Assembly (NCBI GenBank): GCA_016782785.1
Contig: JADHXV010000001.1
Location: 1 to 45,038 of the forward strand
Direction of reading: 5' to 3'
Length of the DNA stretch: 45,038 bases
Source: Planctomycetota bacterium
GTDB lineage: Bacteria > Planctomycetota > Phycisphaerae > FEN-1346
Below are positions 940 through 28,777 of this stretch, piece by piece (position 1 is the stretch's first letter; each line of letters begins with the position of its first letter). Both the position numbers and the translations under genes were made by a program. The notes under the pieces were generated by a model. That model searched no databases. It saw only the letters and a list, made by a program, of their open reading frames with translations, and was not told the DNA's origin.

Positions 940-1863
940 ATGGTGTTGAAGAAGTGGCTGGGCAAACTCTCGTCGGGTCTGGCGAAGACGCGGTCGCGGC
1001 TGGCCGACGGCATGCGCGACCTTTTTCGCGTCGGCCGCAAGGTCGATGCGGCGTTTCTGGAGGAACTCGAGGAAACGCTCATCCTGGGCGACGTGGGCGT
1101 GGCCACCACCCAGCGGATCATCGAAGACCTGAAGGCCCGCTACCGCGACCGCGAGATCACCGCCGCCGACGATCTGCTCGGCATCATCAAGCGCGACCTC
1201 AAGGAAGGCCTGGGCGACGCCGACCGGTCGCTGCACACCAACCCCGACGGTCCCACGGTGGTGATGGTGGCGGGCGTCAACGGCAGCGGCAAGACGACGG
1301 CGGTGGCCCGGCTGGCGCGGATGCTCATGGGCCAGGGCCGCTCGGTCCTCCTGGCCGCGTGCGACACGTTCCGGGCCGCGGCCCACGAGCAACTCGGCAT
1401 CTGGAGCGACCGCGTCGGCGCCGACATGGTCCATCATCAGATGGGGGCCGACCCGGCGGCGGTGGCGTACGACGCGGCGGAGGCGGCCGTCTCGCGCGGC
1501 ATCGACTTCCTGCTGGTCGACACCGCCGGCCGCCTGCACACGCAGGACCACCTGATGCGGGAACTCTCGAAGATCCGCAACGTCCTGGCCAAGAAGGTGC
1601 CGGGCGCCCCGCACGAGGTCCTGCTGGTGCTCGACGCCACGACCGGCCAGAATGCCATCGCCCAGGCCAAGCAGTTCCGCGAGGCCACCGACGTGACGGG
1701 CGTGTTCCTGGCGAAACTGGACGGCACGGCCAAGGGGGGCATCGTGCTGGCCATCCGGAAGGAACTGGGCATCCCCGTCAAGTTCGTCGGCATCGGCGAG
1801 GGGCCGGACGACATTGCCCCCTTCGACCCCGACACGTTCGTCGAGGCGCTGTTCGGGGCTTGA
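940..1863 (+). CDS. ftsY: Signal recognition particle receptor FtsY (NG domain with a short N-terminus)
   Basis: GVNGSGKTTAVARLA (GTPase G1), DTAGRLHTQ (G3), LAKLDGTAKGG (G4-like) and a C-terminal GIGEGPDDIAPFDPDTFVEALF. The last 50 nt (1807-1856) are duplicated at 3762-3811. Confidence 0.95.
   Translation: MVLKKWLGKLSSGLAKTRSRLADGMRDLFRVGRKVDAAFLEELEETLILGDVGVATTQRIIEDLKARYRDREITAADDLLGIIKRDLKEGLGDADRSLHTNPDGPTVVMVAGVNGSGKTTAVARLARMLMGQGRSVLLAACDTFRAAAHEQLGIWSDRVGADMVHHQMGADPAAVAYDAAEAAVSRGIDFLLVDTAGRLHTQDHLMRELSKIRNVLAKKVPGAPHEVLLVLDATTGQNAIAQAKQFREATDVTGVFLAKLDGTAKGGIVLAIRKELGIPVKFVGIGEGPDDIAPFDPDTFVEALFGA
1807..1856 (+). repeat. Direct repeat, left copy (inside the ftsY 3' end)
   Basis: gacgacattgcccccttcgaccccgacacgttcgtcgaggcgctgttcgg is 49/50 identical to 3762-3811. 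The single difference is a synonymous att/atc change. Confidence 0.95.
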
Positions 1864-1936
1864 AGCCAACAGCTCTGTTGCTGTAGGCTGGCGTAGTGCT
1901 ATCATGGTGTGCGGACATTGTGCTTGGAGCCTGCGC

Positions 1937-3148
1937 GTGATCCCTCACATTCGCGAGGTCCGTATCAGGAACTACAAGAGCGTTGACCAGGCGGCGGTGT
2001 CTCTTGAGCCGTTTACGCTGCTTGTTGGTCCGAACGGTTCAGGGAAAAGCAACTTCATTGATTGCCTTGCCTTCGTGCAGGAGTGTCTGGCCGAGTCTAT
2101 CGAATTGGCTTTCAAGAACCGAGGTGGCATCAACGCAGTGCGCCGCAAGTCCGGCGGACATCCCACGCACATCGGCATCGGGCTGAGCCTGTGCTTGCAC
2201 GACGGCGGAACGGCTGACTACGGGTTCGAGATCGCGGCTGAGAAGGCCGGTGGCTTCCGCGTTGCGCGCGAGTCATGCCGCAGGCGTCCATTCATGGGGC
2301 CAGAGGCGGGCTTTGAGGTTGTCGACGGAGAGTTCATCAAGGAGATTGCTGGCATACGACCTAAGGTCTCGCCTGATCGCCTTGCCTTGTTTGCGGCATC
2401 CGCGACCGAGGAGTTCAGGCCGGTTTTTGACTTCCTCACCTCAATGCGCGTCTACTCGGTGGCTCCTGAACGGCTCCGCGAACTGCAGGATCCTGATCCC
2501 GGCGTATACCTTAAGCGTGATGGAAGCAACGCCGCCGCTGTACTCAAGCAAGTGAAGCAGGCAGGTGGAGGAAACGACAGGTACGCGCGGCTTTGTCGGC
2601 TACTTTCTAAGGTCGTGAGGGGCCTAAGCTGCGTTGAGTACCGACCCGTCGGCCAAAAGGAGACGCTTCAGTTCAGGCAGGATGTGGGCCTAGCCCACCC
2701 CTGGCGCTTCGATGCCCTCAACATGTCAGATGGTACTCTTCGCGCTCTGGGGCTGCTGCTGGCCGTTTACCAGGTCGGAAAGGCTTCAGTTGTGGCAGTC
2801 GAGGAGCCCGAGGCTACCGTGCATCCTGCGGTGATGGACGTGATCGTGGACGTACTCCTTGACGCCTCGAATGACCGTCAGGTGCTGGTAACCACCCATA
2901 GCCCCGACATCCTGGAGCACAAGGGGATCCGCGACAGCCAGATAAGAGTGGTAACACTTGATCAGAACCGGACCCTGATTTGCCCTCTGTCCGAGGCCAG
3001 TCGAGAAGCCGTGCGGAGTAAATTGTACACGCTGGGCGAATTGCTGAGGTCTGACGAACTCTCCGCGGACGTCAAGGCCGCCAAGAGGGCTGCTTCGGAG
3101 TTCAGCCTGTTTGACTCTGCCAAGGATCCATTCCAGACGCCGCAATGA
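1937..3148 (+). CDS. ABC-type ATPase of the AAA15/AAA21 (OLD/RecF-like) kind
   Basis: IREVRIRNYKSV N-terminus, Walker A GPNGSGKSN (2027-2053), signature-like MSDGTLRALGLL, Walker B/D-loop VVAVEEPEATVHP (from 2789) and H-loop VTTHSPDIL. The GTG 1937 start is favoured: GGAG lies 8 nt upstream, and a TTGCTG-16-TATCAT promoter-like motif at 1877-1904 would overlap the alternative ATG 1904. The ORF track starts it at 1814, inside ftsY. Confidence 0.85.
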   Translation: MIPHIREVRIRNYKSVDQAAVSLEPFTLLVGPNGSGKSNFIDCLAFVQECLAESIELAFKNRGGINAVRRKSGGHPTHIGIGLSLCLHDGGTADYGFEIAAEKAGGFRVARESCRRRPFMGPEAGFEVVDGEFIKEIAGIRPKVSPDRLALFAASATEEFRPVFDFLTSMRVYSVAPERLRELQDPDPGVYLKRDGSNAAAVLKQVKQAGGGNDRYARLCRLLSKVVRGLSCVEYRPVGQKETLQFRQDVGLAHPWRFDALNMSDGTLRALGLLLAVYQVGKASVVAVEEPEATVHPAVMDVIVDVLLDASNDRQVLVTTHSPDILEHKGIRDSQIRVVTLDQNRTLICPLSEASREAVRSKLYTLGELLRSDELSADVKAAKRAASEFSLFDSAKDPFQTPQ

Positions 3149-3753
3149 CCGCCTCAATCGCCACTATTGTGGAGGGCCAGTCAGAGGTCCAGAGCGTGCC
3201 GGTCCTCTTGCGCCGTATCCTCTCCGAGTGCTTGGGCGCTTCCGGTGTTGATGTGGTTCGGCCCTTCCGGGTTCCACGCACCAAGATCGCAAGGGAACGC
3301 GAACTGGAGCGGGCGGTAAAGCAGACGCTGAGAGACAGGCCCAACGTTGAGGCCATACTGGTACTGCTGGATGCCGACGACGACGATCCCGCCGCCTTCG
3401 GACTGGCGCTTGCCGAGCGGGCGCAACAGGTGAGCGCCAAACCGGTGGCCGTGGTTCTGGCGACGAGAGAACTCGAGGCCTGGTTCCTGGGGGCCAAACG
3501 CTCTCTCAGGGGGGTCAGAGGCATTCGCGATGACGCCGAGCCGCCACCCAACCCAGAGGGTATGCGGGGAGCCAAAGAGTCGCTCTCCCGCAATATGACC
3601 GGTCGGCGGTATCTTGAGGTAGATGATCAGCCTGCACTGGCCGGTAGAATGGACCTTGAGGCGGCGAAGGCAGCCTGTCCGTCGTTCGCCAGACTTGTGC
3701 GGGAGGTGACGCGCCTCGTGGCATGCATTCCGTCCTCTCTGCGCGGTGGATGA
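3145..3753 (+). CDS. DUF4276-type small protein with a Toprim-like acidic motif pattern
   Basis: IVEGQSE (3166-3186), LLDADDDD (3364-3387) and ELEAWFL (3469-3489); 202 aa. Its ATG overlaps the TGA of the upstream ATPase (ATGA at 3145-3148), implying translational coupling. The family assignment is from motif memory and has not been searched. Confidence 0.7.
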   Translation: MTASIATIVEGQSEVQSVPVLLRRILSECLGASGVDVVRPFRVPRTKIARERELERAVKQTLRDRPNVEAILVLLDADDDDPAAFGLALAERAQQVSAKPVAVVLATRELEAWFLGAKRSLRGVRGIRDDAEPPPNPEGMRGAKESLSRNMTGRRYLEVDDQPALAGRMDLEAAKAACPSFARLVREVTRLVACIPSSLRGG

Positions 3754-3761
3754 GAGGCGCC

Positions 3762-3811
3762 GACGACATCGCCCCCTTCGACCCCGACACGTTCGTCGAG
3801 GCGCTGTTCGG
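3762..3811 (+). repeat. Direct repeat, right copy
   Basis: 49/50 identical to 1807-1856. It begins 8 nt after the stop of the DUF4276-type gene. Confidence 0.95.
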
Positions 3812-3827
3812 ATCCGGCGAGGAATAA
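3762..3827 (+). pseudogene. Orphan duplicate of the ftsY 3' end (DDIAPFDPDTFVEALFGSGEE*)
   Basis: It reads in frame as the last FtsY residues plus a different tail (GSGEE, TAA at 3825-3827), with no upstream coding continuation. This is probably the original ftsY terminus displaced by the insertion. Confidence 0.7.
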
Positions 3828-3981
3828 GGCGGGGCACGGGCTCGGCGCGGCCGGTGTATATGCCTTAAGGCTTGACGCGGGCGCCTCTGGAGCCTAAAAG
3901 AGATGAAGGCCGGCGACGGCCGCTTCGCCGCGTGCCCGGCCATTGGTCATTGCACCCCGAAGGACCACGAGAGGAGAACCT

Positions 3982-4473
3982 ATGAGCACGGCACAGGACA
4001 AGAAGAAGGTCATCGAACTGCTGAACCAGGGCCGGGCGGCTGAACTGACGGCCATCATGCAGTACATGGCCCAGCACTACGAACTCGATGACGCCGACTA
4101 CGGCAAACTCGCCAAGATCATGAAGACCATCGGCATCCAGGAGATGAACCACGCCGAGCAACTCGCCGAACGGATCCTGTACCTCGGCGGCACGCCGACG
4201 TCGGAGCCGGACGGCAAGGTCACCAAGGGCCAGGACATCGCCGCCATGCTCAAGCGCGACATCGGCCTGGAGACGGGGGCCGTCGAGATGTACAACGCCT
4301 CCGCCATGGGCTGCGCCAAGGCCGGCGACCACACGTCCAAGCAACTGTTTCAGGACCTCCTGCAGGACGAGGAGGAACACCTGGGCCAGTTCCAGAACAT
4401 CCAGGACCACGTCGCCAAACTGGGCGACGCATACCTGGCCACGCTCGTCGGCGATCAGGGCGGCGAGGCGTAG
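3982..4473 (+). CDS. bfr: Bacterioferritin / ferritin-like di-iron protein
   Basis: LNQGRAAELTAIMQYMAQHY, IQEMNHAEQLAERILYLGGTP and LLQDEEEHL give the Bfr-type E/ExxH ligand pattern. RBS gaggagaa lies 5 nt before ATG 3982. Confidence 0.85.
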   Translation: MSTAQDKKKVIELLNQGRAAELTAIMQYMAQHYELDDADYGKLAKIMKTIGIQEMNHAEQLAERILYLGGTPTSEPDGKVTKGQDIAAMLKRDIGLETGAVEMYNASAMGCAKAGDHTSKQLFQDLLQDEEEHLGQFQNIQDHVAKLGDAYLATLVGDQGGEA

Positions 4474-5229: not shown

Positions 5230-6363
5230 ATGAACGGCGTCACGGGCCGCATGGGCACGAACCAGCACCTGGTCCGCTCGATCCTGGCCATCCGCGACGA
5301 GGGCGGCGTCCGGACCGCCGACGGCCGGACCATACTGCCCGAGCCCGTTCTCGTCGGCCGCAACCCGGAGAAGTTGAAGGCTCTGGATGCCGAGTACGGC
5401 CCGCTGCGCTGGACCACGGACCTCGATGCCGCGCTGGCCGACGCGTCGCTGCCGGTCTACTTCGATTCACTCTCCACGTCGCTCAGGCCGGCGTGCGTGC
5501 GCAAGGCCATCGCGGCCGGCAAACACGTCTACTGCGAGAAGCCGACTGCCACCACCAGCGACGAGGCGTACGCCCTGTACGCGCTGGCCCGCGACGCCGG
5601 CGTCAAGCACGGCGTGGTGCAGGACAAACTCTGGCTGCCGGGCCTCGTGAAACTCAAGCGCCTGATCGACGGCGGTTTCTTCGGCCGCATCCTCTCGGTT
5701 CGCGGCGAGTTCGGGTACTGGGTGTTCACGGGCGACGCCCCGGCCCGGCCGCCGCAGCGGCCGTCGTGGAACTACCGGGCGGAGGAGGGCGGCAGCCTTC
5801 TCGTCGACATGTTCTGCCACTGGCGGTACGTCTTCGACAACCTCTTCGGGCCCGTCCGGTCGGTGGCGTGCCTAGGGACCACGCACATCCCCGAGCGGTG
5901 CGACGAGGCCGGCCGCCCGTACGCCTGCACCGCCGACGATGCCGCCTACGCCATCTTCGAGGTGGGCGACGACGGCGTCGTGGTCCAGATGAACTCCTCG
6001 TGGTGCACCCGCGTCCGGCGCGACGACCTGCTTGTGCTCCAGGTGGACGGGACGCAGGGCTCGGCCGTGGCGGGCCTCCGCGACTGCCGCATCCAGACGC
6101 TCGCCGACACGCCCCGGCCCGTGTGGAACCCCGACGTGCCCAACCCCGTCGATTTCTGGGAAGGGTGGGACCTGGTCGACACCGACGCGGCGTACGAGAA
6201 CGCGTTCAAGGCCCAGTGGGAGTTGTTCCTCCGGCACGTGGCGGCCGACGAGCCGTTTCCGTGGACGCTGCTGGAGGGGGCCAAGGGCGTCCAACTGGCC
6301 GAGGTCGGCCGGCAGGCCTGGCACGAGCGGCGATGGCTGGACGTGCCCGACCTCGCGCCGTAG
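5230..6363 (+). CDS. Gfo/Idh/MocA-family NAD(P)-dependent oxidoreductase
   Basis: (LGII)[14 protein letters not shown] Rossmann start, [10 protein letters not shown] motif and a C-terminal alpha/beta domain. The upstream part of ORF 4963..6363 is an Arg/Pro-rich out-of-frame overlap with the cupin gene. ATG 5230 is the first plausible start, although it truncates beta-1 slightly. Confidence 0.8.
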
Positions 6364-25096: not shown

Positions 25097-26842
25097 TCAG
25101 AAGAACGACGGCCGGGTCTCGTGCCGCCGCTGCTCCAGGAACCCCTCGAGTTTCCGGCTGCGGACAGGGTGCTGGAGTTTGCGGATGGCCTTGGCCTCGA
25201 TCTGCCGGACGCGTTCGCGCGTGACGCGGAAGATGCGGCCGACCTCCTCCAGCGTGTACGTCTGCCCGTCGCCGATGCCGTACCGGAGTTTGATGATCTC
25301 GCGTTCGCGGTACGTGAGGGTCTTAAGGACATGGTCGATTTTCGATTTCAGCATTTCCTGGGTGGCGGCCGTGACGGGCGACTCGGCGGTGTCGTCCTCG
25401 ATGAAGTCGCCGAAGTACGAGTCCTCGCTTTCGCCCACGGGCCGGTCCAGGCTGATGGGGTGCCGGCTGATCTTCATGACGCGGCGGACCTCGGCCAGTG
25501 GCAGGTTGGCCCCGGAGGCCAGTTCCTCGAGCGTGGGTTCGCGGCCGACCTCCTGGAGAAACTGCTTTGAGATATTCCGCAGTTTCGACATCGTCTCGAT
25601 CATATGGACCGGGATGCGGATGGTCCGGGCCTGGTCGGCGATGGCCCGCGTAATGGCCTGGCGAATCCACCACGTGGCGTAGGTCGAGAACTTGTAGCCG
25701 CGGCGGTACTCGTACTTGTCGACCGCCCGCATCAGGCCGGTGTTGCCCTCCTGGATGAGGTCCAGGAACGAGAGGCCGCGGTTGCGGTATTTCTTGGCGA
25801 TCGAGACCACCAGGCGCAGGTTCCCGCCGGAGAGTTTGCGTTTGGCCTCTTCGTACTCGCCGAAGCACTGCTGGATGCGCGCGACGCGCTTGGCGAGTTC
25901 GTCGACGCTTTCGCCGCTCAGGCGTTCGAACCCGGCGAGTTCCTCGCGCAGGGCGGCGGCCTCGGCGGCATCCTCGGCGCTCGCGCCGATTTCGTCGAGC
26001 CGGCGCGCAATCTCCTGCTCCTTGAGGTGGATGCCGATCAGTTTCTTCATGACGCCCTGGACCTTCGAGGTCCGAAGGCTGAGTTCCTCGAGCAGGTGGA
26101 CGCATTTCTGCCGGCGAGCCCGCATCTGCCGGCGCAGCGCCTCGGCCTCGTTGTTCGACGGGCGCCCGTCAACCAGCCGGTCGTAGTCGCCGCGGTTGGC
26201 CCGGAGCAGACTCTCGGCCGTGTCGAGGTTCTCGGGCGACCGCTTGATGATGGTGTTCTTGGCCAGGTTCTCCGAGATGCAGATCTTCATCGTGCGGTCG
26301 AACGGCAACTCGCCGGACTCCACCTGGCGCAGAATCTGGACGGCGCCGGCGATGGCCTCGTCGCTGGCCAGGACCTTCCGGCGGAACTGCTTCCGCGTCA
26401 GTTCGATGCGCTTGGCCAGAAAAATCTCCTCGTCGCGCGACAGCAGCGGAATCTCGCCCATCTGCGTCAGGTACATCCGGACGGGGTCGTCGATGCGCTT
26501 TTGCGTTTCGGCGTCGGTGGGGCCGGCCACACGGGCGGCGCGCTGGGCGGGCCCGGCGGATTCCCATTCGCTGTCCGACTCGCCCCGACGCGGCCGCTCG
26601 CGCCCGTCGCGCAGGGCCACCTCGTTCTCGTCCAGCAGTTCCACGCCCATCTCGTCCAGTTGCATGAGGATGCGGTCCAGGCGGTCGGGGCTGACCAGGT
26701 CGTCCGGCAGGCTGTCGTTCATCTCTTCGTAGGTCAGGTACCCGCGCTCTTTGCCCCGCTGCATCAGATCCTGGATCTGCTGCTCGGCGTTGATCCTGGC
26801 TTTGTGCTTGGTGTTGGCCATTGTGTCCTCGGGCGTCTCCAT
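25097..26842 (-). CDS. rpoD: RNA polymerase primary sigma factor (sigma-70)
   Basis: Region 1.1 ([14 protein letters not shown]), region 2 ([41 protein letters not shown]), region 3, and region 4 ([27 protein letters not shown]). The alternative start ATG 26821 (MANTK) has the better RBS. Confidence 0.95.
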
Positions 26843-26887: not shown

Positions 26888-28777
26888 CTATGCCTGTCCG
26901 GAGTCGCCGGACATCCGCTTCCGGGCCGCCGGCGTCGTAAAAGCTTGTTTCTTGGCTTCGTTGCCGCGAGCCTCGGCGAACTCCTTCAGCGCCTTGTTCG
27001 GGTCGGCGCCGCCTTGGGTCGGGGCCTGGCCACGGGCCTGGCGACGGGCCTCCAGCAGCGCCTCCTCTTCGATCTTCTTGAAATCCCTCAGGGCCTCCTC
27101 GAGCAGGTGCTCGATCGGGCCGGGACCGGTGTCCGCCGGGTTCCTGACTGTTTCCATCGCTTGGCCTTGCTCGAACAACTCCACCGCCAGACTCGCGTCG
27201 GCCGGGTCCTCCATGCCGCGCACGAGGCCCGCCACGTCGGCGTCGCCGGCCGACGGGCTCGACCGGATCGCCTCGTACAGGCGCCGGAAGGCCGGCGTCT
27301 CGATGCGTTCCGGCGGCACGCGGTCCAGCACGTCCTCGATGGCCGACGGCCGGCACACCAGCGCCGTCAGCAGTTTCCGTTCGGCGACCCACTGCCGGCC
27401 GCGATGGGCCGCGTCGGGCAGGTTCCGGCCGACCTCGGTGCCGGCGGCTGACCGGCCTGCCGGCCGCCGCAGCCGGCGGAACTCGGCCCGCAGGGTCGCC
27501 TCCGGGATGCCGAGCGTCCGGCTCATGTGCCCCAGGATGAGGTCGCGCTGGAGCCTCAGGTCCTGCTGCGCCAGGGCAGGGGCCTTCAGGACGCTTTCGA
27601 GCATCGCCCGAAGGGCCCGCTCGCGGGCCGCCGGGTTCGTGGCCGCGTCCAGGTCCTGCTGGACGAGGTCCCACTTGTACTTGAAGGCGTCGGCGGCCCC
27701 GGCCAGGCACTGCCGGAAGCCGTCGGCCCCGTGGAGCGTGCAGAAGTCGCACGGGTCCTTGCCTTCAGGCACGACGGCCACGAGGATACGGACGTCGTGG
27801 GCGAGGAAAAGTTCCATCGCCCGGTCGGCCGCCCGCCGGCCCGCCAGGTCGCTGTCGAAGACCACGACGACCTCGTCGGCGTAGCGTTTCAGGGCCTGGA
27901 TGTGGTCGTCGGTCAGGGCCGTGCCGAGCGTTGCCACGCACGTCCTGACGCCTGACTGCCACGGGGTAATCACGTCGAAATACCCTTCGACGACGACCGC
28001 CCGTCGGTCCGCCTCGATGGCCTCCCGCGCCTGCGGCAGACCGTAAAGGGCCTCCTTCTTGTGAAAGAGCGGCGTTTCCGGCGAGTTCAGGTACTTAGGC
28101 TCCTCGTCGCCCAGGACCCGCCCGCCGAACCCGATCGGCCGGTTCAACGCGTCGAAGATCGGGAAGATTGCCCGTCCCCGGAACCGGTCGTAGTAGCCTG
28201 TGCCGTCGTTTCGCGGAATGACGAGCCCGGCCTGTTCGAGCATGTCCAGGCCGATGCCGTCCCGAGCGCCGGCGCGAATCAGGTTGTCCCAGCCTTCGGG
28301 CGCGAAACCGAGGCCGAACGCCTTGATCGTTTCGTCCGCCAGGCCGCGTTGCTTCAGGTACTCGCGGCCGGGCGTGCCGAGCGTCGGATGCGCCAAGCCG
28401 GCCTGGAACCGTTCCTGGGCCCAGGTCAGGACGTCGCGCAGCCGGCGTCGGCCTTGCGTCTTCCGGCGGGCGTCGGGATCCTCCCGCAGTTCTATACCCG
28501 CCCGCTCGGCCAATATTCGCACGGCCTCGGGGAACGTGATGCTCTCCTTGGCCATCACGAAGTTAAACACACTGCCGCCACGCCCGCACCCGAAGCACTT
28601 GAAAATCTGCTTCGCGGGGCTGACGGTAAACGAGGGCGTCTTCTCGGCGTGGAAGGGGCACAGCGCCACATAGTCCTTTCCCGCCCTCTTGAGCGGGAAG
28701 TACCCCGACACCACCTCTACGATGTCGTTGGCGCGTGCAACTTCGTCTAGAATGTCGTTCGAGAAGAGTCCCGGCAA
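26888..28777 (-). CDS. dnaG: DNA primase
   Basis: Zinc ribbon CPFHAEKTPSFTVSPAKQIFKCFGCG, then the RNA-polymerase core, then Toprim (VVVEGYFDV...VVFDSDLAGRRA). The only start consistent with the conserved N-terminus is TTG at 28777. Confidence 0.93.
   Translation of the reverse strand: MPGLFSNDILDEVARANDIVEVVSGYFPLKRAGKDYVALCPFHAEKTPSFTVSPAKQIFKCFGCGRGGSVFNFVMAKESITFPEAVRILAERAGIELREDPDARRKTQGRRRLRDVLTWAQERFQAGLAHPTLGTPGREYLKQRGLADETIKAFGLGFAPEGWDNLIRAGARDGIGLDMLEQAGLVIPRNDGTGYYDRFRGRAIFPIFDALNRPIGFGGRVLGDEEPKYLNSPETPLFHKKEALYGLPQAREAIEADRRAVVVEGYFDVITPWQSGVRTCVATLGTALTDDHIQALKRYADEVVVVFDSDLAGRRAADRAMELFLAHDVRILVAVVPEGKDPCDFCTLHGADGFRQCLAGAADAFKYKWDLVQQDLDAATNPAARERALRAMLESVLKAPALAQQDLRLQRDLILGHMSRTLGIPEATLRAEFRRLRRPAGRSAAGTEVGRNLPDAAHRGRQWVAERKLLTALVCRPSAIEDVLDRVPPERIETPAFRRLYEAIRSSPSAGDADVAGLVRGMEDPADASLAVELFEQGQAMETVRNPADTGPGPIEHLLEEALRDFKKIEEEALLEARRQARGQAPTQGGADPNKALKEFAEARGNEAKKQAFTTPAARKRMSGDSGQA

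Follow-up and report, generated by a model that had tools for sequence, protein, structure and literature searches.

The DNA analysed here, hereafter the window, is an entire 45,038-bp contig of a planctomycete metagenome-assembled genome (MAG), in which two adjoining genes encoding an ATP-binding cassette (ABC) ATPase (gene 1) and a DUF4276 protein (gene 2) lie directly behind ftsY. The pair is a member of HEC-01, a catalogued two-gene candidate anti-phage system, so the pairing itself is not new, and the cassette that carries it is a foreign insertion among host genes. Taken jointly, the results are best explained by an HEC-01 member that would act as an ATPase-regulated nuclease defence and that would have been gained horizontally as a cassette at the ftsY end through a single crossover, an explanation to which we assign a probability of about 0.62. 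It builds on direct observations of family identity, conserved catalytic residues, gene co-occurrence, foreign origin, repeat structure, and the presence of both empty and filled alleles.

An HEC-01 pair of an ABC ATPase and a DUF4276 protein

Searches with the models of PADLOC-DB v2 matched gene 1 to HEC-01A (PDLC04178; E 4.9e-129, 428.9 bits; residues 3-389 of 403, profile positions 7-391 of 399) and gene 2 to HEC-01B (PDLC04196; E 3e-65, 217.9 bits; residues 1-193, profile positions 1-193 of 197). The PADLOC models for AriA, AbiLi, mad3, Old, and GajA rank far below HEC-01A on gene 1 and match it via generic ATPase regions only. HEC-01, i.e., Hma-embedded candidate 01, was described as an ABC ATPase plus a TOPRIM protein found embedded in Hma systems, with HEC-01B keeping the metal-binding site of the Burkholderia pseudomallei OLD Toprim (Payne et al. 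2024, bioRxiv 10.1101/2024.01.29.577857). In an assay on E. coli B, protection against at least one of T4, T5, and T7 was obtained with one HEC-01 representative, and HEC-01 is among the most abundant system types in cold-seep prokaryotes (2026 Nature Communications, PMC12881386). An earlier note on this DNA had presented the pair as uncharacterised and as a ‘third way’ of combining the two activities. This is apt as a description, but the claimed novelty falls because PADLOC already names the two proteins HEC-01A and HEC-01B and the pairing has already been assayed.

Gene 1 is an OLD-class ABC ATPase, with a fold related to OLD, PtuA, and SMC heads. It encodes no nuclease domain and ends with the stop codon at 3148. 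Pfam assigns AAA_21 (6.6e-28, 99.1 bits against a cut-off of 27) and AAA_15 (2.3e-20, 74 bits against a cut-off of 32.1), and among 47 homologues of 63-96% identity, the motif residues G31-x-N33-G34-x-G36-K37-S38, M263-SDGTLR269, E289-E290-P291-E292, and T319/H321/S322 show either no variation or a conservation of at least 90%. The profile of the gene 1 family aligns by hhalign with the entire ATPase domain of P2 Old (probability 95.6%, E 1.2e-8). When its AlphaFold2 (AF2) model (mean predicted local distance difference test score, pLDDT, 89.5) was searched with Foldseek, the matches included PtuA of Septu and retron systems (E 8e-14 to ~1e-13), SMC and Rad50 heads, and Thermus OLD (6p74; E 1.2e-11), all at template-modelling (TM) scores of ~0.45-0.5. 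Sequence matches in the PDB comprise OLD, a retron ATPase, PtuA, AriA, and GajA, all weak and confined to motif regions. The GTG start at 1937 is preceded by GGAG, 7 nt upstream, and agrees with the N-terminus M-I-P of the homologues. Two alternative starts, TTG at 1814 and ATG at 1904, were rejected, given that they reach into the ftsY stop region and that the homologues begin M-I-P.

Gene 2 runs from an ATG within the ATGA (3145-3148) that it shares with gene 1 to position 3753; Pfam assigns it to DUF4276 (6.7e-19). The coordinates and motifs that the earlier note gave for both genes all proved correct against the open reading frame (ORF) listing and a direct reading of positions 1780-4000, and Pfam and residue conservation agree with its description of an OLD-class ABC ATPase without a fused nuclease, followed by a separate DUF4276 gene with an E...DxD set. 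Across 49 gene 2 homologues of 55-90% identity, E10, D76, D80, E109, E111, and W113 do not vary, and the conservation of D78 and D79 is 90% or more. In the AF2 model (pLDDT 93.7), E10 comes right after the strand 4-9, DADDDD right after the strand 68-76, and RELEAW after the strand 101-106. The resulting order, strand-Glu-helix ... strand-DxD-helix-strand, is that of Toprim domains. The structure that matches best in BFVD is that of an RloB-like protein (E 6.4e-4, TM 0.52); DnaG primases and topoisomerases come next, with weak matches. Below threshold, Pfam OLD-like_TOPRIM aligns with residues 7-39 of gene 2 (E 0.11), and the 49 family members show matches to DUF3226 (13), RloB (4; best E 0.042), and OLD-like_TOPRIM (4). 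The Toprim superfamily includes both RloB and DUF4276, the family to which Mad4 belongs (Menshen paper, PMC12065111). A PHROGs search with gene 2 returned no match. Conserved residues, secondary-structure order, and literature thus back the reading of gene 2 as a putative Toprim-like metal-dependent nuclease, which is supported rather than proven.

The two genes keep together elsewhere, as the earlier note had expected. Of 80 genome loci, 79 have a gene 1 homologue directly upstream of gene 2 in the same orientation, and the remaining one has no upstream sequence; a homologue is so placed in 72 of the 74 metagenome loci that have upstream sequence. In all, about 150 of 154 checkable loci have the two genes. 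According to the titles of the genome records, the pair occurs in Planctomycetota, Chloroflexota, Acidobacteriota, Actinomycetota, Desulfobacterota, Nitrospirota, Gemmatimonadota, Poribacteria, and others. The two genes overlap by 4 nt at 57 of 151 junctions (ATGA in 49), with most of the others falling within a few nucleotides. Judged from this arrangement, the pair is a conserved, translationally coupled operon.

By analogy with PARIS, OLD, Gabija, and AbiL, the most likely function is that of an ATPase-controlled Toprim-like nuclease in defence against phages or other mobile genetic elements. An oligomer of the ATPase would serve as a sensor or regulator that keeps the nuclease inactive until a phage cue or a change in ATP turnover; the DUF4276 protein would then cleave nucleic acid (DNA or tRNA) through a Glu...DxD...ExE metal site, and this cutting would stop the infection. 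We infer the sensor/effector division of labour and the substrate, and take the Toprim assignment, the phage assays, and the need for mad3 and mad4 from published papers.

A foreign cassette in the last codons of ftsY

The window FtsY ends in ...ALFGA* (307 amino acids) and not in the native ...ALFGSGEE* (310 amino acids, the length found in the closest relatives). A 50-nt segment corresponding to the 3’ end of ftsY is present in two copies that are 49/50 identical and spaced by 1955 bp, one on either side of the gene pair (Table 1; related loci that were fetched for comparison carry numbers with the prefix L). In L009, the empty-site allele, the repeat leads straight into the native ftsY tail, and an equivalent single-copy layout is found in L184. 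The closest relative (FtsY 91% identical) has the order nusB-ftsY-ferritin, with a 310-amino-acid FtsY, a single copy of the segment, and no cassette. Base composition also sets the cassette apart. Its G+C content is 0.607 versus 0.693 in the rest of the window, and the G+C content at third codon positions (GC3) is 0.686 in gene 1 and 0.700 in gene 2, compared with 0.900 +/- 0.026 (minimum 0.847) in 16 host genes. That the cassette is a foreign insertion among host genes, as the earlier note had proposed from its lower G+C content, is strongly supported by the GC3 gap, the empty site in the closest relative, and the empty-site allele in the population itself.

Table 1. Positions of the cassette, its motifs and boundaries in the window, and repeat-flanked relatives at other host genes
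Feature	Position	Strand	Basis or remark
ftsY (signal recognition particle, SRP, receptor), host gene with cassette at 3’ end	940..1863	+	SRP54_N/SRP54 Pfam matches on identical gene in L001; NCBI name FtsY (P0241)
Left repeat copy, 50 nt, in-frame ftsY end, host type (T at repeat position 9)	1807..1856	+	Repeat search; identical to empty-site allele L009
Cassette leader: imported ftsY tail GGCTTGA (stop 1861-1863) and 73 nt intergenic with GGAG	1857..1936	+	Sequence
Gene 1 (HEC-01A), 403-aa OLD/PtuA/AriA-class ABC ATPase	1937..3148	+	PADLOC, Pfam, P2 Old alignment, AF2 model
Gene 1 Walker A, GPNGSGKSN	2027-2053	+	
Gene 1 ABC signature, MSDGTLR	2723-2743	+	
Gene 1 Walker B, VVAVEEPE	from 2789	+	Walker B/D-loop 2789-2812
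Gene 1 H-loop, TTHSP	2891-2905	+	
Gene 2 (HEC-01B), 202-aa DUF4276 protein, putative Toprim-like metal-dependent nuclease	3145..3753	+	PADLOC, Pfam, conserved acidic residues, AF2 model
Gene 2 motif IVEGQSE	3166-3186	+	E10 at 3172-3174
Gene 2 motif LLDADDDD	3364-3387	+	D76-D80 at 3370-3384
Gene 2 motif ELEAWFL	3469-3489	+	E109/E111 at 3469-3477
Donor-type (L018-type) ftsY bases AGGCGCC preceding right repeat copy	3755-3761	+	
Right repeat copy, 50 nt, donor type (C at position 9)	3762..3811	+	0/50 mismatches to left (ftsY) copy of L018
Displaced native ftsY tail ATCCGGCGAGGAATAA (SGEE*), non-coding remnant before ferritin-like gene (3982-4473)	3812..3827	+	Sequence; L009, L184
Acyl-CoA dehydrogenase target	L032:4552-4643/6635-6726; L117:2044-2148/4126-4230; L130; probably L120		Repeats 89-105 nt
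GlgX-like target	L077:4622-4664/6612-6654		Repeat 43 nt, 100% identical
Fatty-acid hydroxylase target	L116:1201-1254/3209-3262		Repeat 54 nt
Fumarase-like lyase target	L156:2059-2101/4510-4552		
Unknown-ORF targets (two)	L133:1386-1513/3563-3690 (L133/L128); L144:2168-2233/4155-4220		

Metagenome contigs that encode proteins identical to those of the window (L003, L004, L005, L007, and L009) break at the repeats. In two samples, the contigs holding only the cassette have a coverage of 3.4 and 5.7, against 11.6 and 21.4 for the flanks (~27-30%), while in a third sample cassette and flank contigs both stand at ~55 (~100%). Positions 1-80 of L009 begin with left-flank bases, continue through the left-copy variant of the repeat, and run straight into the native tail, i.e., they represent the empty-site allele. 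Because of this allele and the lower cassette coverage in two samples, the cassette is present in only a part of the population. As a separate observation, homologue-bearing contigs of ~1.9-2.3 kb, the length of the cassette, are apparently in excess in the gene 2 table (18 by hand count, against 7 and 9 in the adjoining bins), which suggests that, throughout the family, assembly graphs often break at the cassette ends, via the repeats or partial presence in the population.

A cassette behind ftsY with a 46-70-nt repeat is also found in L016, L018/L104, L021/L105 (Planctomycetes bacterium SM23_25), and L112, and the cassettes of L016, L018, and L104 share the window’s leader. Relative to the window, the nucleotide identity of L018 is 82% in ftsY, 96.5% in gene 1, and 93% in gene 2; the corresponding values for L016 are 85%, 96%, and 85%. 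L021 is 84% identical in ftsY and 66% in gene 1, with gene 2 reaching 98% in its 3’ half. The comparison of window positions 3300-3700 with L021:5300-5746 exposes a mosaic, in which the 3’ half of gene 2 is 98% identical, whereas identity falls to 60-70% in gene 1 and in the 5’ part of gene 2. These gene identities relative to ftsY indicate that the cassette moved between lineages recently and recombines internally. A divergent HEC-01 variant occupies the same ftsY-ferritin site in L188:5001-7810, L024:3792-6606, and L025:1739-4553, with no detectable repeat; its gene 1 is 69-74% and its gene 2 61-67% identical to those of the window, and the FtsY of L188 is intact at 310 amino acids. The ftsY-ferritin site behaves as a hotspot for the HEC-01 cassette family.

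Apart from the cassette, the window holds housekeeping genes, namely nusB, ftsY, a ferritin-like gene, a cupin, a GFO/IDH oxidoreductase, an asparaginase, aroDE, rpoD, and dnaG, as well as a class II tRNA synthetase, rsmB, surE, trkHA, tsaC, and two-component proteins. No tRNA, integrase, or transposase was found within its 45 kb, nor any other defence gene, methylase, or helicase. The dnaG-rpoD pair lies at 26888-28777 (-) and 25097-26842 (-); the Toprim domain of DnaG is canonical (Toprim_2, 3.3e-22), and gene 2 was compared with it. Around 41 related cassettes, the immediate neighbours (82 genes) are mostly metabolic, and no mobility family, integrase included, appears among the commonest neighbour-family matches of these loci. 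Homologues on plasmids or phages are rare (three Streptomyces megaplasmids and one phage contig, at 35-40% identity). Scanning positions 1700-4100 for sigma-70 promoters and terminators gave no consensus promoter and one terminator at chance level, and the cassette may be transcribed by read-through from ftsY. The gene downstream of the cassette in L077 (Bryobacteraceae; L077:6712-7863) encodes a GFO/IDH/MocA oxidoreductase homologous to that at 5230-6363 in the window, ~1.5 kb 3’ of the cassette; the likeness may be a coincidence or reflect co-transferred flanking DNA.

Recurrent flanking repeats, route of integration, and rival readings

The layout at ftsY recurs at other genes. Long direct repeats flank 17 of 100 testable cassettes, compared with 2 of 132 shifted pseudo-cassette controls, one control position, ~3 kb 3’ of the cassette in the Poribacteria contig L086, having yielded a 314-nt, 83% identical direct repeat that is an unrelated duplication. 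Besides ftsY, repeat-flanked cassettes occupy at least six co-directional host genes (at least seven targets in total), whose 3’ ends form the left repeat copies. Repeat length ranges from 26 to 128 nt across the targets, and in four of them the host stop codon lies 3-8 nt past the repeat. The right repeat begins 1-62 nt past the gene 2 stop at most targets and 122-433 nt past it in L026, L118, L128, and L156. Independent insertions have no conserved terminal sequences in common. Repeats or duplications go unmentioned in the HEC-01 preprint (bioRxiv 10.1101/2024.01.29.577857), and limited literature searches found no description of a repeat-flanked layout for defence cassettes.

The differences between repeat copies are informative about the route. 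In L018, all five left/right differences sit in the 3’ half of the repeat, and in the window the left copy is of host type and the right copy of donor type (Table 1). This pattern most probably reflects a single crossover, in which an incoming copy, circular or tandem, recombined with ftsY. As we picture it, the module would have been gained horizontally as a 1955-bp cassette that entered the last codons of ftsY by a single crossover with a circular copy of ~2 kb, made up of a ~57-nt ftsY 3’ fragment, the donor ftsY tail, the leader, and the two genes. Such an integration would leave the 50-nt direct repeat, and recombination between the repeats could delete the cassette again. We infer the circular intermediate from these boundaries. 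The wider proposition, that HEC-01 cassettes are non-autonomous circles of ~2 kb that borrow a gene 3’ end as a homology arm and are carried from one related genome to another by the host’s homologous recombination, is tentative, with odds a little short of even. Two other origins were considered and rejected: for the window copy, a simple staggered-cut target-site duplication, given that the right repeat and the 7 nt preceding it are of donor type and not of recipient type, and RNA-mediated copying with cassette ends equal to transcript ends, given that the right repeat begins 1-8 nt past the stop in the ftsY group and leaves no room for a terminator.

Several results weigh against the joint explanation. 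In the independent fold tests of this analysis, the Toprim fold predicted for gene 2 is weakly supported. Foldseek searches of its model against the PDB returned lumazine synthases at the top (E ~1e-3, TM <0.5) and PurE, i.e., generic three-layer alpha/beta folds, and the top 50 matches contained no OLD, AriB, GajA, or RNase M5. The gene 2 family profile found nothing below E 0.69 among PDB sequences, and hhalign gave a probability below 1% against both P2 Old and the window’s DnaG Toprim domain, although the same runs paired just the Glu strand (IVEGQSE with LVEGKTE of Old) and the DxD strand. Conserved residues and strand order fit the Toprim-like fold advanced in the earlier note, and the best structural match is RloB-like, but the PDB structure search and the profile alignments were not significant. 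With regard to function, the HEC-01 representative assayed first failed to protect against any of the phages tried (bioRxiv 10.1101/2024.01.29.577857). Defence-island context is also rare, ~2-4 of the 41 related loci having a defence gene as immediate neighbour and one of them HmaA/HmaC. Here, as in most relatives, the cassette stands alone among housekeeping genes, which departs from the typical defence cargo that the earlier note had seen in it. With regard to the route, 83% of the related cassettes have no flanking repeat, and the junction predicted for a circle (gene 2 end GGTGGATGAGAGGCGCC, repeat, and leader GGCTTGAAGCC) was not found in 189 fetched loci or in IMG/VR.

Two rival readings concern mobility. 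Target-gene 3’-end direct repeats are the classical footprint of integrase-mediated insertion, as in islands at tRNA genes, icd, and fda. The cassette could be a passive passenger that depends on a site-specific recombinase acting in trans from elsewhere, with the 50-nt repeats as attL and attR of a cis-mobilisable element. The hybrid repeat copies fit attB x attP recombination as well as they fit homologous recombination. We nonetheless consider this reading unlikely: an integrase is missing both from the contig and from the commonest neighbour families of the related loci, the unrelated target sequences, at least seven, would demand as many helper specificities, and the repeats vary in length. 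Alternatively, the pair could itself be a selfish mobile unit, whose two proteins, the Toprim-like nuclease and the ABC ATPase, would nick host genes at their 3’ ends, insert the cassette, and make target duplications of 26-128 nt, with defence a secondary role. If true, this would describe a transposable unit of two genes and no recombinase that also serves as a defence system. The recurrence at six or more further targets of repeat-bounded two-gene cassettes with no integrase, transposase, or tRNA nearby speaks for it, as do the excess of repeats over shifted controls, the closeness of the right repeat to the gene 2 stop in independent events, the presence and absence of the cassette within one population, and its exchange between lineages. 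However, the donor-type right copy with its preceding 7 nt and the one-sided differences in L018 are what a single crossover with an incoming homologous fragment would leave, with no need for an element-encoded enzyme, most cassettes are repeat-less (that of L188 sits behind an intact ftsY), no terminal sequences are shared, and an HEC-01 member did protect E. coli from phage (PMC12881386). We give the selfish unit only a slim chance, and the non-autonomous circle is considerably more likely than self-mobilisation by the two genes.

Two further readings question the defence role of the pair on its own. It could be an orphan fragment of a larger system, MADS Mad3-Mad4 or Hma, with no function alone. 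HEC-01 was discovered embedded in Hma systems, DUF4276 is the family of Mad4, Mad3 is a related ATPase, and the NCBIfam MAD3 model weakly matches gene 1. That match reaches 111.9 bits against a cut-off of 420, however; PADLOC mad3 scores 82 bits versus 429 for HEC-01A, and its mad4 model gives no match to gene 2 at E up to 1. Moreover, the window has no methylase, helicase, or other defence gene, and the solitary two-gene arrangement with intact motifs is conserved across many phyla, which makes the orphan reading slightly less probable still than the selfish one. Least credible of all is a housekeeping factor of DNA repair or recombination, of the SbcCD, RecF, or RecN kind, standing outside any conflict system. 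SMC_N, RecF, Rad50, and SbcC-like models do match gene 1 at the Walker A and signature regions, but the best full-length matches are defence families, and the closest relative and part of the same population lack the pair, its codon usage is foreign, and it has been exchanged horizontally.

The gene pair alone adds little: hidden Markov models and two phage assays already exist for the HEC-01 family, of which this is a further locus, from a planctomycete not in culture. The locus is of more value as a clean natural example of a solitary cassette with exact boundaries and an empty site in both the closest relative and the same population. It further combines near-identical ATPase genes, despite a 15-18% difference in ftsY, with a recombination breakpoint inside the nuclease gene, and illustrates the ways in which small defence modules can spread, and disappear again, in the absence of mobility genes. 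If this layout with flanking repeats is general, it would offer one mechanistic explanation for ‘embedded’ defence genes that lack an integrase, and a simple sequence signature with which to find such cassettes.

Comparison with known systems

HEC-01 has the same two components in the same order, and both window proteins match its sub-models end to end. Unlike the loci in which the system was discovered, the window copy lies outside Hma or any other defence locus and is solitary in the ftsY 3’ end. Its flanking repeats and its presence and absence within a population are not mentioned by Payne et al., and the representatives that were tested came from other organisms, with mixed results.

PARIS is the best-understood model for such a pair, consisting of a nuclease-less AAA_15/21 ABC ATPase and a separate effector of the Toprim superfamily, and the PARIS paper in Nature added ‘AbiL and MADS3-4’ to the ABC-ATPase plus TOPRIM systems (PMC11464382). 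The earlier note’s label of a PARIS-like pair does not extend to family membership. Gene 2 belongs to DUF4276, whereas AriB belongs to DUF4435, and neither Pfam nor PADLOC gave a DUF4435 or AriB match to gene 2 at E up to 1. AriA models score 75.8 and 98.8 bits on gene 1, through generic AAA_15/AAA_21 regions, against 428.9 for HEC-01A, and AriA in the PDB aligns with residues 263-331 only (~70 residues, E 1.6e-4). At 202 amino acids, gene 2 is also much smaller than AriB, which has been given as 35 kDa.

MADS offers Mad4, a DUF4276 protein, and Mad3, an AAA_15/21 ATPase, and deletion of any of mad2-4, mad3 and mad4 included, lowered growth under phage. Mad3 and Mad4 are accessory, though, in an eight-gene methylation-based system, whereas the window contains no methylase, none of the mandatory Mad6-8, and no other mad gene; by the score of NCBIfam NF047739 given above, gene 1 is not a Mad3 equivalog.

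Among the class 1 OLD proteins, P2 Old has an ATPase domain homologous to gene 1 over its whole length, and its LVEGKTE corresponds to IVEGQSE of gene 2 in an alignment that is non-significant. In Old and Gabija GajA, ATPase and Toprim are fused in one polypeptide, whereas the window has two genes and a different Toprim family. AbiL is closer in organisation, since AbiLi (ATPase) and AbiLii (RloB-like) form a two-gene pair of an ATPase and a Toprim-superfamily protein, the AbiLi model matches gene 1 at 1.6e-28, and the best structural match of gene 2 is RloB-like. Gene 2 reaches RloB only below threshold, however, and PADLOC returned no AbiLii match to it.

With respect to its insertion, the cassette resembles Campbell-type integration into a gene 3’ end, which leaves duplicated gene ends, as for e14 and phage 21 in icd, and which has integrase-less counterparts in the cis-mobilisable elements found beside integrative and conjugative elements. 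In both cases, the insert lies between direct repeats of the 3’ end, an imported tail keeps the gene functional, and the native tail is left on the far side. The window insert differs in comprising only two genes (1955 bp) and no recombinase, and in a layout that recurs at many unrelated targets.

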